This document shows positions 1 through 4,419 of a stretch of 4,609 nt of DNA, piece by piece (positions within the stretch are counted from its first letter, which is position 1; each line of letters begins with the position of its first letter). The notes beneath the pieces were generated by a model. That model made no database searches. It saw only the letters and a list, made by a program, of their open reading frames with translations, and was not told the origin of the DNA. The position numbers and the translations under genes are program-made. Origin of the DNA: a virus (taxonomy: Duplodnaviria > Heunggongvirae > Uroviricota > Caudoviricetes); IMG/VR virus record IMGVR_UViG_2703718809_000009; one strand, 5' to 3'.

Positions 1-177
1 TGCCAGTTCGTCAAGCTGGCTGTCTCCCAGCCATACAGGCGGGACGTTATCACCAGCAAGTCGCCCGTCCTGTTCCTGCCACTGTTTCGCGTGCGCCCAG
101 GCATCACTACCCGCAAAGATGATTACCTCTGTCATTTTGTCGTGCGGCTGTTTTTTCAGATTCGGTGCCAGTTTCAT
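1..177 (-). CDS. Hypothetical protein, N-terminal 59 codons only (continues beyond window start); possibly the start of a larger replication-type gene
   Basis: ATG at 177..175 overlaps the TGA stop (176..174) of the upstream gene in an ATGA arrangement. The frame stays open to position 1 (MKLAPNLKKQPHDKMTEVIIFAGSDAW...). Not in the ORF track because it is truncated by the window edge. Function is unknown; the replication-gene suggestion is only by analogy with P4-like layouts. Confidence 0.5.
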   Translation of the reverse strand, partial: MKLAPNLKKQPHDKMTEVIIFAGSDAWAHAKQWQEQDGRLAGDNVPPVWLGDSQLDELA

Positions 178-473
178 TTTTTGCCCCTGAATGCGTTAAT
201 CATGCTTTTCATTTTCTGAATATTTGCCCGTGCCTTTGCGTTGCTGGTGGGCTGTTTGCGTGGTGTGGACTGTATCAGTGAAAAATCACGCCGGAACTGA
301 TAAACAGGCATCACACAGTCATAGCCGTACCCATCACGGCGGTAAGTAACGCACCGTCCCGCCACGCTTTTAATCGTTACCGTGCCGCCGTAGTTATCCC
401 GGAAAATATCGCCGGGGCGGATTTCAGGCCGAGCGGGGCCGCTGGCAGTAAAGCCAGAATTTTTCTTTTTCAT
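174..473 (-). CDS. Small phage protein, DUF4222-like (99 aa)
   Basis: ATG at 473..471 with GGAG 9 nt upstream. The translation contains PGDIFRDNYGGTVTIKSVAGRCVTYRRDGYGYDCVMPVYQFRRDF, which fits my recollection of the DUF4222 small-domain pattern (PG..RD..G..VT....R.GY..C...F). Stop overlaps the next start. Confidence 0.6.
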   Translation of the reverse strand: MKKKNSGFTASGPARPEIRPGDIFRDNYGGTVTIKSVAGRCVTYRRDGYGYDCVMPVYQFRRDFSLIQSTPRKQPTSNAKARANIQKMKSMINAFRGKK

Positions 474-479
474 GTTTTT

Positions 480-698
480 TTACTCCAGAGGCCGCTTTTT
501 AGCGAAGAGTTCAATATCAGATGTCAGAGAAACCTGTGTATTTGCCAGGTCTAACAACAAAGAAATAAGAATTTCCTCTCTGCTATCTGATTTATCGGTG
601 CTAAGGCTGTTCATCCACATATTGACGACTTCCCTGATTTTTTTCGCAGAGTGCAGGGCTTCAAATGCCAGGTCTTCAATATCATGTTTATTTCGCAT
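480..698 (-). CDS. Hypothetical small protein (72 aa)
   Basis: ATG at 698..696 (MRNKHDIEDLAFEALH...), with a G-rich stretch upstream. The ORF-track version (480..764) starts further upstream, but the 698 ATG sits 11 nt from the stop of the preceding gene (688..690), consistent with translational coupling. No family recognised. Confidence 0.5.
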   Translation of the reverse strand: MRNKHDIEDLAFEALHSAKKIREVVNMWMNSLSTDKSDSREEILISLLLDLANTQVSLTSDIELFAKKRPLE

Positions 699-900
699 AA
701 TCGCCCCCGCGTAACTGGTCTGCACTAACACCCGATTTAGTGAGCATTTCAGAAAATCCCGCAAGAGTGCTGATAAATTCGTTTTCCATTAAACGGCACT
801 GGCATTTAACCCGGCCTTTTTCCAGATACACCAGTACGCGCCCCGTATAATCTGACGGCACATTCAGCACTACAGATAAGTGCGCTTCATTATTATTCAT
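688..900 (-). CDS. Hypothetical small protein (70 aa)
   Basis: ATG at 900..898 preceded by a strong SD (GGAGGTGG, reverse complement of 903-910). ATGAATAA overlap with the stop of the upstream gene. No family recognised. Confidence 0.55.
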   Translation of the reverse strand: MNNNEAHLSVVLNVPSDYTGRVLVYLEKGRVKCQCRLMENEFISTLAGFSEMLTKSGVSADQLRGGDYAK

Positions 901-1129
901 GGCTCACCACCTCCATATCAGCCATGATAATTTTGCTGGCCTCATTCAGTGCCATATCAGCACTAAGTTGCATTACAGCCAGTGAATGAGGAACGAAAGC
1001 CCCGGCATATTCTGTTTCACTGGTAGCGTGCTTATGCGCCCTGTCCGCGATAACAGAAATATCAATCAGTGCATCAATCAGTGTTTTGATTGCTTCGGCG
1101 GCTGCGTCCGGACGGGTGTTATTGCACAT
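893..1129 (-). CDS. Hypothetical small protein (78 aa)
   Basis: ATG at 1129..1127 preceded by AGGGGG. Overlaps the stop of the Icd-like gene (1119..1121) by 11 nt. No family recognised. Confidence 0.55.
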   Translation of the reverse strand: MCNNTRPDAAAEAIKTLIDALIDISVIADRAHKHATSETEYAGAFVPHSLAVMQLSADMALNEASKIIMADMEVVSHE

Positions 1130-1487
1130 GGTGCACCCCCTGACGAATACGGGCGGCGAATATCATCACGCAGCCAGTTGGGGATTGTTGGCGGGCTTCC
1201 TGTTCGCTGGCGGCCTCGATGTGTATTACGCGTGGTTGTGCGGTGCTCAGGGCGATAAAACGCCAGATGAAATTGTTTTCGCATTTCTGAATAAACAGCG
1301 TGTTTTCTTCACGCCCTTTCCAGAAAGCCGCAGTATAGCCCATCTCCTTAACCATCTTGCGGGCATCAACCAGCGTGTCAGCGGCAACATGTACCGTAGT
1401 TGCTCCATCTGCCATGCGGTCGTGGTGTAGTGCCACAAAGGTGTATATAAATTTAGGGTGAGTTTGGGTATGCTGTGTTCCAGCCAT
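1119..1487 (-). CDS. Icd-like (host cell division inhibitor family) phage protein, 122 aa; first gene of the leftward operon
   Basis: ATG at 1487..1485 with SD GAGGT (reverse complement of 1495-1499) at ideal spacing. Translation MAGTQHTQTHPKFIYTFVALHHDR... resembles the Icd-like small proteins of P4-type elements as I recall them. The ORF-track entry 1119..2036 is an implausible upstream extension that runs through the operator repeats and antisense to the RHH gene. Confidence 0.55.
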   Translation of the reverse strand: MAGTQHTQTHPKFIYTFVALHHDRMADGATTVHVAADTLVDARKMVKEMGYTAAFWKGREENTLFIQKCENNFIWRFIALSTAQPRVIHIEAASEQEARQQSPTGCVMIFAARIRQGVHHVQ

Positions 1488-1518
1488 AATCGTTACCTCG
1501 TTTAACGGTTTGGTTAGA

Positions 1519-1560
1519 AGCCCGGTTAGTGTTCGCGCACTGCCGGGTTTCGTCGTTTTT
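1519..1560 (+). terminator. Terminator-like GC-rich hairpin plus T-tract on the + strand, lying inside the leader of the minus-strand operon
   Basis: cccggttagtg (1521-1531) pairs with cactgccggg (1538-1547): about 10 bp with one bulge, loop ttcgcg, followed by tttcgtcgttttt (1548-1560). There is no + strand gene upstream to terminate, so its role is uncertain. Confidence 0.35.
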
Positions 1561-1573
1561 ATGAATCGATCAT

Positions 1574-1676
1574 TGTGAGATACATAGCGACCATAATGTG
1601 AGATATACATTATATTGTGGTGATATACATTGCAAGTGTTTTTATATCTCACTTTTGTGTATAGTGATATACACAT
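1574..1676. promoter_or_regulatory. Divergent promoter/operator region with an array of GTGA(G)ATATACAT-like repeats
   Basis: Direct copies at 1575-1586 (gtgagatacata), 1598-1610 (gtgagatatacat), 1620-1630 (gtgatatacat) and 1664-1676 (gtgatatacacat); inverted half-site tatatctcac at 1643-1652. Start-to-start spacing 23, 22 and 44 bp. A perfect TATAAT on the minus strand (1614..1609) overlaps the second repeat, and a palindromic TTGCAA sits at 1630-1635. Confidence 0.5.
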
Positions 1677-1695
1677 AACAAATTGGTGATTAACT

Positions 1696-1998
1696 ATGTC
1701 TGTATACAAAAATGCAAAATCGCAAATGACAACGATCAGGGTTCCCCACGATGTTATGGAGGGCATGGAATCCGTAAAACTGGACGGCGAAAGCAACGCC
1801 GGATTCATAGTAACCGCCATGCGCGGTGAGATCGCCCGCCGCCAGGCAGAAGGAAGCGGAGAAAATCCCCTCGTGTCTTCACTGGATGCCTTAGCTAAGG
1901 TCGAACAAATCGGCATCAAGGCAGCGGAGGAAATCGGGCAACTCGTAGCCGTCGCTCGTGAAGAACTCCAGCGGCGTAAAGCCAAAGAATCTGAATAA
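1696..1998 (+). CDS. Ribbon-helix-helix (CopG/Arc-like) putative transcriptional regulator, 100 aa
   Basis: ATG at 1696 with GGTGA 6 nt upstream. The N-terminal segment TTIRVPHDVMEGMESVKLDGESNAGFIVTAMRGEIARRQ fits a beta-strand / helix / G-x-S-N turn / helix layout, followed by a charged C-terminal tail. Divergent from the Icd-like operon across the repeat array. An alternative start at the ATG at 1726 is possible. Confidence 0.65.
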   Translation: MSVYKNAKSQMTTIRVPHDVMEGMESVKLDGESNAGFIVTAMRGEIARRQAEGSGENPLVSSLDALAKVEQIGIKAAEEIGQLVAVAREELQRRKAKESE

Positions 1999-2007
1999 TT
2001 AGTATCA

Positions 2008-2034
2008 GCGCCGTGATGTGAGTAACTACGGCGC
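2008..2034 (+). other. Weak hairpin downstream of the RHH gene (7-bp stem gcgccgt/acggcgc, 13-nt loop)
   Basis: Inverted repeat 2008-2014 / 2028-2034, 10 nt after the TAA stop at 1996-1998. No clear U-tract follows, so terminator function is uncertain. Confidence 0.2.
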
Positions 2035-2348
2035 ATTGCTATGTAAATACTGGCAATAAACAGAAAAGGTAGTTCTACTCCGAATAATTTTATCTGACAC
2101 TACTCCTGAACTAACATGCGCTTATCTTACAGGATATAAATATAAATCCATAAAATCACGATTAAATAAAGTCGCTCCAAACATAAACCACACCCAACGC
2201 TTAACAAGATAGCAACAAACAGGTAAATAACTTGCAGAAATATTTATCGCAAGGATTATCATTATTAATGACAAATCACTTTACCAAGTCATTCCCCTCT
2301 CTTATCATAAAGAGAAAGTAATAAATAAGTTAAGGGAGTTAGAATGCT

Positions 2349-2885
2349 ATGAATCTAAAAAAAATAGCCACAAACACAAAAAACAAGATAACAGAAACAT
2401 TTAATAAACTTATATTAGAGGCATCTAAAACCCCCACACAAGATGAAATTAAAATACTTGAGAGAAGGAGCAAGAAGTTTAATTACTCCTTTTTCTCATA
2501 CGCAGTCACAGGAGCTATAATAGTTTTTTGCTCTCAACCATTAATTAAATACGCAAACCCAATACTTATTTTATTGAGTGGTCTGTTACTGTCTATCATC
2601 ATTATCATTCTCAGAATGATTTATATTTCACAAGCGAATGCATCATGGACAACCAAAAAACGCTCACATGTACTAGTTCATTTTCTTTCTGCATGTTTCA
2701 TAGCATCAACATTGACGTTGCTATATCAGGCTTACGATAATAACATCACACACAAATTGTACTGTAAAAATATACAACAACTTATTGAAAAAAGGATAGA
2801 AACAGAAAAAAACATCAGCATATTCAGTGGGATGCAATGCACCCCGGTATATGATTACTCTTTATTTGGATTTAATCTCTTATAA
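2349..2885 (+). CDS. Predicted small integral membrane protein (178 aa, about 3 TM segments) in AT-rich cargo; function unknown
   Basis: ATG at 2349 with SD AAGGGAG (2331-2337). Hydrophobic segments FFSYAVTGAIIVFCSQPLI, ILILLSGLLLSIIIIILRMIYI and HVLVHFLSACFIASTLTLLY are flanked by charged soluble N- and C-terminal regions. Codon usage is strongly A/T-biased and the local GC is far below the flanks (about 27% in a 60-nt sample I counted). No family recognised. Confidence 0.75.
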   Translation: MNLKKIATNTKNKITETFNKLILEASKTPTQDEIKILERRSKKFNYSFFSYAVTGAIIVFCSQPLIKYANPILILLSGLLLSIIIIILRMIYISQANASWTTKKRSHVLVHFLSACFIASTLTLLYQAYDNNITHKLYCKNIQQLIEKRIETEKNISIFSGMQCTPVYDYSLFGFNLL

Positions 2886-2893
2886 AGAATGTT

Positions 2894-2947
2894 ATTACTG
2901 ATTTGAGTACAAATTCTCAAATCAGTAATTCATAATATTTTATTCTG
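2894..2947. terminator. Probable bidirectional intrinsic terminator between the convergent cargo gene and alpA
   Basis: Perfect 14-bp inverted repeat attactgatttgag (2894-2907) / ctcaaatcagtaat (2916-2929) with 8-nt loop tacaaatt, followed on + by tcataatattttattctg and on - by a moderately U-rich run. The stem is AT-rich (4 GC pairs of 14). Confidence 0.5.
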
Positions 2948-2954
2948 AGATAAT

Positions 2955-3182
2955 TTAAACTACCCACTCACCTCGAATCCATGCCTGCACTTCTGAAAGA
3001 CGATATGCAACAGCAGTGGAACCAATCTTGATCCGCTTAGGAAATTTTCCTTCCTTCTCCAGCTTCCAGCGTGTGCTGTTCGCAAGAGTGGTTAGCTCCC
3101 GACATTCTTTCTCACGGATCATTCGGTCAATGTTAGGAATGTACTCCAGACCCTTTTTATCAACAATTGCCATTTTTTTCAT
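2955..3182 (-). CDS. alpA: AlpA-family phage regulatory protein (excisionase-like HTH DNA-binding protein), 75 aa
   Basis: ATG at 3182..3180, 1 nt after the int stop (TAA 3186..3184). Translation ...RELTTLANSTRWKLEKEGKFPKRIKIGSTAVAYRLSEVQAWI matches the characteristic AlpA/Vis-type helix-turn-helix pattern. The ORF-track start at 3191 is a TTG in the sequence, not ATG. Confidence 0.85.
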   Translation of the reverse strand: MKKMAIVDKKGLEYIPNIDRMIREKECRELTTLANSTRWKLEKEGKFPKRIKIGSTAVAYRLSEVQAWIRGEWVV

Positions 3183-3183
3183 G

Positions 3184-4419
3184 TTAACCAACCTTTTGTT
3201 TGAGGATTGTCACTTTTGAATCAGCACCTGCGATGCTATTGAGATATGTAGTCCAGAGTTCCAGAGCATCCAGTTTTTTAGCCATAAACTTACTCCGGTT
3301 GTAAACACCTGCCACGCCAGGTAGCGCATGGCCTAACAGTTGTTCTACTACATAAAATTCAACACCGAGATCACTTAGATGAGTAGATAGCGTTCTTCTA
3401 AGGTCGTGTAGTGACCATTGTTTTTCATGGCCCAAACGTTTACCGATTTTCCCCCCAATCTTGCTTACGCTTTCTCTAATTCGCAGACTTCCCAGCACAT
3501 AACCAGTATGTTTTGTCTCTTCGTGAACATCCGTTACCCACTGTCGTAGAATTTCAGGTACTGGTCTGACGATTTCAACACCAGTTTTTGAGTGATCTTT
3601 TGGTACAGTCCAAACCCAACTTTCGAGATCCCATTCGCTCCATTCTGATAATCGGGCTTCACTCATTCGACATCCAAATACTGTACAAAGCACAAACATT
3701 TTTCGCGTGTATTCAGACATTAGTTTTAAATCAGGCTCGACAAAAATTGCCTTCCAGAGCTGGCCGAGTTCGGCTTCATCCAGAACCCGATCCCGCTTAC
3801 CTGCAATCTGCCCCACATCACTCATGCGCAAATCCTTTAAAGCATCACACGTCGCGTACTGGCGTACCCGACAAAAACGAAGAGCTAATTTAGTGTCAGA
3901 AAAAACATACGCCGCCATAACTGGTGCATTACGTTTAATTCGGTCAAAACAGTCCAGCCATTCATATAGGTGAGTGTCATTTACGGGCAAATGACCGATA
4001 TAGGGAAAGATATGCTTTCGAAATCTGCCAAGCGTTACAGCATGAGTTTTACGACGCACCTTACAGTAATTTTCATACCAGTAATTTAGTGCATCCTCCA
4101 CTGTAACCGGCTTTAAGCGTTCTTCAGCCTGAATCTTAATCTGGATACGCGGATCACGTTTGTCAGCCAACCAACCACGGCACTCGTCGCGCTTTTCCCT
4201 TGCCTGTTTGAGTGACATATCAGGATATTTACCCAACGTTAGCCAGACCGGAGCAGCCCGGCCACCTGCTAACCTGTAGAAGAAAACAAAGCTCACAGCC
4301 CCTTTAGTACTCACACGAATAGAAAGCCCCTTTCCATCAGCAATGGTGATCTGCTTTTCTCTGGGTTTCCCCAGATATCCTTTAAGCGCTTTGTCGCTCA
4401 GTTTGTTCTCGCCAGCCAT
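3184..4419 (-). CDS. int: P4-type tyrosine integrase (site-specific recombinase, phage integrase family), 411 aa
   Basis: Start at ATG 4419..4417 (MAGENKLSDKALKGYLGKPREKQITIADGKGLSIRV...) preceded by GGGG; the ORF-track start at 4470 is a GTG extension. The N-terminus has the P4-int arm-binding domain pattern (...GKYPDMSLKQAREKRDE...). The C-terminus carries catalytic-domain motifs HDLRRT, LGH and the tyrosine in GVYNRS. Confidence 0.9.
   Translation of the reverse strand: MAGENKLSDKALKGYLGKPREKQITIADGKGLSIRVSTKGAVSFVFFYRLAGGRAAPVWLTLGKYPDMSLKQAREKRDECRGWLADKRDPRIQIKIQAEERLKPVTVEDALNYWYENYCKVRRKTHAVTLGRFRKHIFPYIGHLPVNDTHLYEWLDCFDRIKRNAPVMAAYVFSDTKLALRFCRVRQYATCDALKDLRMSDVGQIAGKRDRVLDEAELGQLWKAIFVEPDLKLMSEYTRKMFVLCTVFGCRMSEARLSEWSEWDLESWVWTVPKDHSKTGVEIVRPVPEILRQWVTDVHEETKHTGYVLGSLRIRESVSKIGGKIGKRLGHEKQWSLHDLRRTLSTHLSDLGVEFYVVEQLLGHALPGVAGVYNRSKFMAKKLDALELWTTYLNSIAGADSKVTILKQKVG

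Follow-up and report, generated by a model that had tools for sequence, protein, structure and literature searches.

The DNA analysed here, referred to as the window, is a stretch of 4,609 nucleotides (IMGVR_UViG_2703718809_000009) and is the left end of an E. coli phage-satellite type island of the PICI or P4-like kind. Its minus strand encodes a tyrosine integrase (3184-4419), an AlpA-family regulator (2955-3182), and an operon in which an Icd-like gene is followed by small overlapping ORFs, a DUF4222 gene (174-473), and primase, with ORF overlaps at 1129/1119 and 900/893. The plus strand carries a membrane-like ORF of 178 amino acids (2349-2885) and a gene of the YlcI/YnfO family (1696-1998; NCBIfam YlcI_YnfO_N, 8.5e-20). 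Parts of the window were matched in 1,641 of 5,426 complete E. coli genomes. At the locus of strain 95-3322 (NZ_CP027461.1, 1456.6-1457.0 kb), which is 99.7% identical, the genes that follow are those for primase, SSB, capsid, head decoration, and small terminase, and the PGAP annotation of the near-identical locus agrees with the Icd-like gene call. Between the 178-residue ORF and the AlpA-like gene lies an AT-rich perfect inverted repeat of 14 pairs (ATTACTGATTTGAG...CTCAAATCAGTAAT, 2888-2939), which the terminator scan lists as terminator-like on the minus strand and which is probably a bidirectional terminator.

The first gene of the operon (1119-1487, minus strand) encodes 122 amino acids, and was assigned by the NCBIfam model phage_ICD_like (2.7e-21, residues 73-116). 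NCBIfam names it 'host cell division inhibitor Icd-like', its toxicity being only putative. The ATG lies at 1487-1485 and is preceded by a Shine-Dalgarno sequence, GAGG, at 1499-1496. The Icd-like domain is confined to residues 73-116, and the N-terminal 70 residues are missing from most homologues (58-90 amino acids), with the exception of the first ~10 residues (MAGTQHTQTHP), which are kept. Since the DNA for these residues also holds the antisense promoter and the start of the RNA described below, the conserved peptide may be shaped by constraints at the DNA or RNA level.

Opposite the start of the Icd-like gene, a SymR-like cis-antisense RNA of ~75-79 nt was predicted on the plus strand (1482-1560) from an Rfam SymR match, the model R1, folding, and a conserved blastn block. 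The first-pass annotation had noted a GC-rich plus-strand hairpin followed by a T-tract. Such a terminator-type stem-loop is present (hairpin 2, 1517-1551, GAAGCCCGGUUAGUGUUCGCGCACUGCCGGGUUUC), consisting of 15 pairs with one bulge, and is followed at 1552-1560 by the U-rich tail GUCGUUUUU, where, judging by conservation of the tail in homologues, the RNA presumably ends. The folding-energy calculation proposed along with it found hairpin 2 to be stable at -23.2 kcal/mol (z -5.36), a value equalled by 0 of 200 shuffles. The hairpin is thus real on the plus strand, yet it constitutes only the 3' half of a two-hairpin RNA, which folds as a whole (1482-1560) at -33.8 kcal/mol (z -6.62). The other half, hairpin 1 (1482-1515), was likewise identified by folding and compensatory changes. 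Its stem holds the start-codon complement CAU (1485-1487), and its loop of 7 nt (1496-1502) opens with the anti-Shine-Dalgarno CCUC (1496-1499); in 74 of 89 distinct RNAs the next base is a purine, which makes the loop YUNR-like. The overlap with the Icd-like start codon and Shine-Dalgarno sequence that had been described earlier holds at the level of single bases, CAT (1485-1487) and CCTC (1496-1499) being their exact complements in the DNA.

A GC-rich stem directly before a U-tract, the defining feature of an intrinsic terminator, is found at hairpin 2 and GUCGUUUUU. The 1517-1551 hairpin was not listed by a simple terminator scan of the window because the rules of that scan require an unbulged stem and a loop of 3-8 bases. 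In 66 distinct homologues, G directly follows the stem in 100% and U occupies positions +5 to +7 after it in 80-94%, resulting in a tail consensus of G-Y-Y-n-U-U-U. The tail of the window (UUUUU) is among the best in the family, and the U-tract is short or interrupted in many homologues. A minus-strand terminator or attenuator was also considered and rejected; on that strand the hairpin is followed by CUUCUAACC, with no U-tract.

By blastn, the conserved block begins exactly at 1482, is especially conserved at 1511-1558, and recurs in over 1,100 of 5,426 E. coli genomes, including those in which its surroundings are different. Hairpin 2 in particular is near-identical across many islands with different flanks. 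The element is carried by about one fifth of complete E. coli genomes and is also found in elements of Klebsiella, Salmonella, Yersinia, Citrobacter, and Morganella. Homologues were gathered from 13 diverse E. coli copies, 120 IMG/VR loci found with a DNA pattern, and plasmid and phage copies, and covariance-model searches yielded 144 full-length matches; model R1 scores the window element at 95.4 bits. The collecting pattern, the source of most homologues, fixed TACCTC, TGGTYAGANGCC, and GGC. In the resulting alignment, which was fitted to the covariance model and, together with the pattern, favours the outer stem pairs, 97.2% of pair cells were paired across 66 distinct sequences, and compensatory changes were observed in 16 of 24 pairs, with 154 cells changed on both sides. 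The inner-stem pairs, which bear most of the compensatory changes, were unconstrained by the collecting pattern. None of 500 shuffles reached the observed pairing and covariation, and sliding the partner by 1-3 columns left 31-49% of cells paired. Both hairpins contributed, with compensatory changes in 7 of 11 pairs of hairpin 1 (96.7% of cells paired) and in 9 of 13 pairs of hairpin 2 (97-99% paired).

Upstream of the RNA, the sequence TATGCT (1469-1474, plus strand) falls within Icd-like codons 5-7 and lies 7 nt upstream of A1482, as expected of a -10 box. Numbered from the RNA start, T at -13, A at -12, and T at -8 were each conserved in 99% of 73 distinct upstream sequences, and the middle positions were variable (TATGCT, TAGACT, TACTAT, TATGAT, TACACT, and others). 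TAnnnT is the signature of a sigma-70 -10 box. Furthermore, the base matching the -14 G of an extended -10 box was conserved in 92%. The key A of the -10 box corresponds to a third codon position on the other strand, where the codon ends in T in 104 of 105 distinct sequences and encodes His, Ser (TCT, AGT), Cys, Tyr, Leu, or Phe; a third-position base that is constant across six amino acids is therefore kept for a reason at the DNA level and not for the protein. A possible, weak -35 region, TATAAA (1446-1451), is located 17 nt upstream of the -10 box, matches TTGACA at 3 of 6 positions, and mostly reads TGTAAA in homologues. The TATA-like element at 1444-1451 that had been suggested as the promoter of the antisense transcript is indeed present on the plus strand, yet it falls at the -35 position; its use as a -10 box was rejected, as conservation places that box at 1469-1474, and the RNA is therefore expected to start near 1482 and not near 1455. 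The antisense promoter was not called by a simple promoter scan of the window, the rules of which are too strict for so weak a -35 region. These observations point to a predicted plus-strand promoter embedded in the Icd-like ORF.

For the operon itself, sequence and scan gave a candidate minus-strand promoter with a -35 of CTTGCA (1636-1631), a 16-nt spacer, and a perfect -10 of TATAAT (1614-1609), predicting an mRNA start at ~1602. The sense leader would accordingly measure ~115 nt and would hold the complement of the entire antisense RNA. Of 99 distinct homologous regions, 52 have a comparable sense promoter, in many cases with TTGACA intact, and in 38 of these 52 loci the -10 lies 20-39 nt past the end of the RNA model. 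A repeat search identified five copies of the motif GTGAGATA(TA)CAT / GTGATATACA, in both orientations, over the divergent promoter region of the Icd-like and ylcI genes (1575-1690); these are presumably operators for a regulator. A LexA box (CTGT-N8-ACAG) was sought in 1560-1700 and none was found, and SOS control of the symE kind was rejected on this account. The sole exact CTGT-N8-ACAG in the window (1041-1056, plus strand) lies inside the 78-residue ORF of the operon and is probably due to chance, as 15 of 200 shuffles gave as many matches.

The relation to SymR was established from both directions. The Rfam SymR model (RF01809) matches 1482-1554 on the plus strand end to end (model positions 1-77). 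With 35.3 bits (E 4.5e-4) the match falls short of the model's gathering score, 61 bits, and it was the single credible one in an E-value scan of the window with Rfam. Of eight other family members, four are matched by the same model at the corresponding position (24.2-37.3 bits). Conversely, a covariance model built from 88 satellite and prophage homologues with SymR left out (R2) finds K-12 symR at 3836-3920 of its locus (L002; annotated 3836-3912), at 33.4 bits and E 3e-5 in 467 kb. As each model recovers the other's RNA, the relation is reciprocal. K-12 SymR is a 77-nt cis-antisense RNA with a promoter inside symE and represses SymE translation (PMC1891008). It folds into the same two-hairpin shape, and the -10 boxes and start sites can be aligned (K-12 TAGAAT-gcgtgtc-AGTCAT; window TATGCT-gtgttcc-AGCCAT); mutation of the K-12 box TAGAAT abolishes SymR (PMC1891008). 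Judging by fold, covariation, and model matches, this locus thus very probably contains a plus-strand RNA element that is conserved, structured, and a homologue of SymR.

The start of an opposing ORF is a nearly constant feature of the family. An ATG on the opposite strand is found at RNA bases 4-6 in 135 of the 144 members and directly upstream of the RNA start in 7 further members. A recognisable Icd-like domain was detected in 107 of the opposing ORFs, and the other targets include primases with an MA..QHTQT leader, HNH endonucleases, a GIY-YIG/NUMOD endonuclease, and symE. This variety of targets leads us to read the module as a portable 5' cassette which, by the evidence of its sequence contexts, is placed on different lead genes of mobile elements. 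Lower-scoring but clear members were also observed over the start codons of HNH, GIY-YIG/NUMOD, and P4-alpha-like primase genes (IMG/VR loci L023, L036, L112, L047, L026, and L052). The modules of L036 and L112 have 61-65% G+C, which suggests hosts outside the enterics.

The same SymR-like module is also present on IncR, IncY, and other plasmids of Klebsiella, E. coli, and Salmonella, where it heads a BREX defence island. On pEFER (L018, NC_011743.1) the module occupies 3023-3103 on the plus strand and the overlapped ORF starts at 3028 on the minus strand; the BREX-associated copy is found as well in L019 and in ~105 plasmid records. It overlaps the start of an ORF opening with MAGSQHTQTRPEFTWRF, directly upstream of brxR, for which the PGAP CDS is shorter. 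Judged from its position, this ORF is probably the 'brxT' of Picton et al. (PMC8565348, PMC9122601), and an antisense RNA is not mentioned in these two papers on the BREX island. In addition, several islands contain two modules that are 41-80% identical (L003, at 1770-1850 and 2514-2595; L049, L066, L092, L099, L105, L107). Tandem ylcI cassettes flank the second module, which is not backed by any credible Icd ORF and could be an orphan, a trans-acting copy, or a terminator copy. In three of these islands (L003, L049, L066), a frame of ~317 codons stays open from the second module onwards, crosses two annotated genes in antisense, and joins the Icd-like ORF in frame.

Downstream of the RNA, the YlcI/YnfO gene of the window starts after 136 nt, and in 130 of the 144 family members homology to a YlcI/YnfO-like ORF on the same strand begins 50-135 nt past the model match. 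It is possible that this gene is a read-through partner or a regulator. Its product has an N-terminal region with a strand-helix-helix look; a single-sequence AlphaFold model was too poor (pLDDT 63) to recognise or dismiss a ribbon-helix-helix repressor. No sequence relative was found in the PDB, and Pfam and PHROGs gave no function.

The proximity of this gene raises the most serious rival explanation, in which the plus-strand transcript is mainly the 5' leader of the YlcI/YnfO mRNA, hairpin 2 is an attenuator or leaky terminator, and any antisense role is secondary. The same-strand YlcI/YnfO ORF in those 130 members is what such a leader would predict, as is the arrangement in a large class (pEFER and L003 among them) where the gap to the start codon is only ~40-55 nt and holds no obvious promoter; in some islands, moreover, the second module stands directly before a ylcI copy without a credible Icd ORF. 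Yet the module also occurs with no YlcI gene, at symE and at HNH/GIY-YIG endonuclease and primase genes, and the near-constant anti-start codon (bases 4-6) and anti-Shine-Dalgarno loop would be needless in the leader of a downstream gene. In the window, the 136 nt before ylcI contain the operator-like repeats and a good -10 sequence of their own (TATAGT, 1660-1665), and the terminator has the strongest kind of U-tract. We consider the leader explanation unlikely as the main function, although the leader and antisense roles are compatible and the transcript may also, or instead, serve YlcI/YnfO.

Much less probable is that the structure acts in the minus-strand mRNA, as a stabilising or protein-binding 5' stem-loop, with no plus-strand RNA made; a stabilising leader structure of this kind had been offered by the first-pass annotation as the alternative to a plus-strand cis-antisense RNA. 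The region does lie inside the predicted 5' leader of the operon, and the complement of hairpin 2 still forms a hairpin (-14.9 kcal/mol, z -2.9), weakened because three G·U pairs turn into A·C mismatches. The complement of the whole element (1482-1560), however, folds at -19.3 kcal/mol (z -1.77), no better than shuffles. Further evidence against it comes from the homologues: the pair cells of the 66 distinct sequences include 222 G·U or U·G and only 3 A·C or C·A, the same cells are 97.2% paired when read as plus strand versus 83.3% as minus strand, and two pairs that are G·U in 63 and 47 of the 66 sequences would be C·A on the mRNA. Selection thus appears to have acted on the plus-strand fold rather than on the leader of the Icd-like mRNA. 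Nor would a structure in the mRNA account for a plus-strand -10 box that is conserved and kept at constant spacing, and the homologue SymR is a proven plus-strand RNA. Least probable of all, to the point of being negligible, is that the hairpin arose by chance, is a remnant, or terminates an unrecognised upstream plus-strand gene such as the 114-residue ORF 1086-1430. This ORF does end at 1430, but it is antisense to the N-terminal extension of Icd-like that other islands lack and is for that reason not conserved, and the element as such recurs in more than 1,100 of the 5,426 E. coli genomes and shows a covariation that greatly exceeds that of the controls. The G·U bias, the fixed -10 box, and the reciprocal SymR match instead favour the plus-strand cis-antisense reading of the predicted RNA.

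On this evidence we hold with good confidence that the RNA is a SymR-related cis-antisense RNA silencing the Icd-like gene and possibly, by polarity, the replication operon. That a discrete small RNA is transcribed and represses translation of the Icd-like gene is likewise probable. We infer RNA production, translational repression, and polar effects alike from the sequence. In the proposed mechanism, the promoter inside the Icd-like ORF (TATGCT) would drive a plus-strand RNA from A1482, three bases inside the ORF, which would fold into two hairpins and end at the hairpin 2/U-tract terminator at ~1556-1560. Such an RNA would match the 5' leader of the Icd-like mRNA base for base in antisense, Shine-Dalgarno sequence and start codon included, and would display its anti-Shine-Dalgarno in loop 1. 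Made constitutively, it would pair with the leader and occlude the Shine-Dalgarno sequence and start codon, as SymR does, so blocking ribosome access to the early/replication operon of the satellite (Icd-like, small ORFs, DUF4222, primase).

That the repression is also polar on the operon and works as a threshold filter has an even chance or slightly less. A block at the Icd-like gene could lower the downstream genes through lost translational coupling and Rho-dependent polarity; downstream expression is expected to fall because the ORFs of the operon overlap, a principle known from c4-icd-ant of phage P1. The RNA would then serve as a threshold filter under which leaky transcription of the island stays silent, and once the sense promoter is strongly induced, its transcription would titrate the RNA and pass through or occlude the antisense promoter, resulting in a switch-like release.

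If correct, this adds a post-transcriptional layer, an antisense RNA over the ribosome-binding site of the lead gene, to the silencing of satellite replication and packaging genes. The silencing of Gram-negative satellites (PICI, P4-like) before the arrival of a helper is understood mainly through protein regulators such as AlpA. An ncRNA feature at the element was absent in all 13 RefSeq loci inspected; as the Rfam score lies below threshold, annotation pipelines would miss it. The present analysis thus flags an unannotated RNA gene, including the copy upstream of the well-studied plasmid BREX defence island, and provides SymR with relatives and with a probable origin on mobile elements. We know of no SymR relatives outside symE loci, and none turned up in the literature searched. 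A literature search of limited extent returned no paper linking SymR with Icd-like genes, PICIs, P4-like elements, or satellites, and for PICIs only C4/isrK-type RNAs were noted in the HE-PICI paper. Within the limits of the literature searched, a SymR-like family in satellites looks undescribed so far.

A broader proposal, which we regard as doubtful, is that the module is a portable and diversifying 'antisense lock' on dangerous operons, with trans-acting specificity groups, a YlcI/YnfO switch, and a domesticated symER. Such locks would sit on satellite replication genes, HNH/GIY-YIG nucleases, primases, the brxT-BREX island, and symE. The fast-evolving hairpin 2 and the orphan second copies would define the trans-acting specificity groups, by which satellites could silence or exclude related satellites, as in plasmid incompatibility. 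Read-through of the terminator into YlcI/YnfO could couple the RNA to a protein regulator and produce a bistable switch, and the chromosomal symER would represent a domesticated copy of the cassette.

Among known systems, the predicted RNA resembles c4 of P1/P7 and its relatives in the Rfam C4 clan, CI of P4 and IsrK, in that an RNA masks the ribosome-binding site of an operon-heading icd, with the Icd-like domain in common. The polarity mechanism of c4-icd-ant was reportedly worked out by Citron and Schuster in 1990 and by Riedel et al. in 1993. In outline, an RNA over icd in the P1 immI region shuts off the downstream ant (PMC8198154). The c4 and CI RNAs, however, are processed from the transcript of their own target and pair over short, imperfect stretches, whereas the RNA of the window would be a true cis-antisense RNA with full complementarity; the Rfam C4 and isrK models gave nothing in the window, with E values up to 10 admitted.

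The sar RNA of the phage P22 immI region is a short antisense RNA with a promoter inside a divergently controlled immunity region. It resembles the present RNA in covering the ribosome-binding site of a gene harmful if expressed at the wrong time and in having beside operator repeats a small divergent gene, which in the window is a possible regulator. It differs in pairing with an intercistronic region, where the window RNA would pair with the leader of the first gene, and the Rfam scan of the window returned no match to sar, a sequence relationship being undetectable. Type I antisense RNAs such as Sok of hok/sok are likewise constitutive small RNAs that block a potentially harmful protein encoded opposite, and they too have diversified on mobile elements. 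In hok/sok, however, the target is a solitary small toxin with a fold-back and leader-peptide arrangement that is absent here, and the target in the window is the lead gene of a multi-gene operon, its toxicity being putative.

The closest counterpart is SymR (RyjC; Kawano, Aravind & Storz 2007, PMC1891008), and the predicted RNA of the window is a SymR-type cis-antisense RNA, not a new principle. Both consist of two hairpins in 77-79 nt, begin with AGYCAU three bases inside the target ORF, and have the -10 box, a predicted one in the window, within that ORF and 7 nt before +1. In both, complementarity extends over the start codon and Shine-Dalgarno sequence, the anti-Shine-Dalgarno is exposed in loop 1, and loop 2 has the core GUGUU-GCGCAC. 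SymR is stable, is present in roughly tenfold excess over its target, and acts with no need of Hfq or RNase III (PMC1891008). The two differ in sequence, family members scoring 24-37 bits versus the gathering score of 61, and in target, which is the AbrB-fold SymE for SymR and an Icd-like gene heading a satellite replication operon in the window. SymE is furthermore an SOS-induced toxin under LexA, and the control region of the window has no LexA box. Finally, unlike SymR, the RNA of the window has a U-tract after hairpin 2 and a YlcI/YnfO gene downstream, and belongs to a large, diversified family carried on mobile elements.
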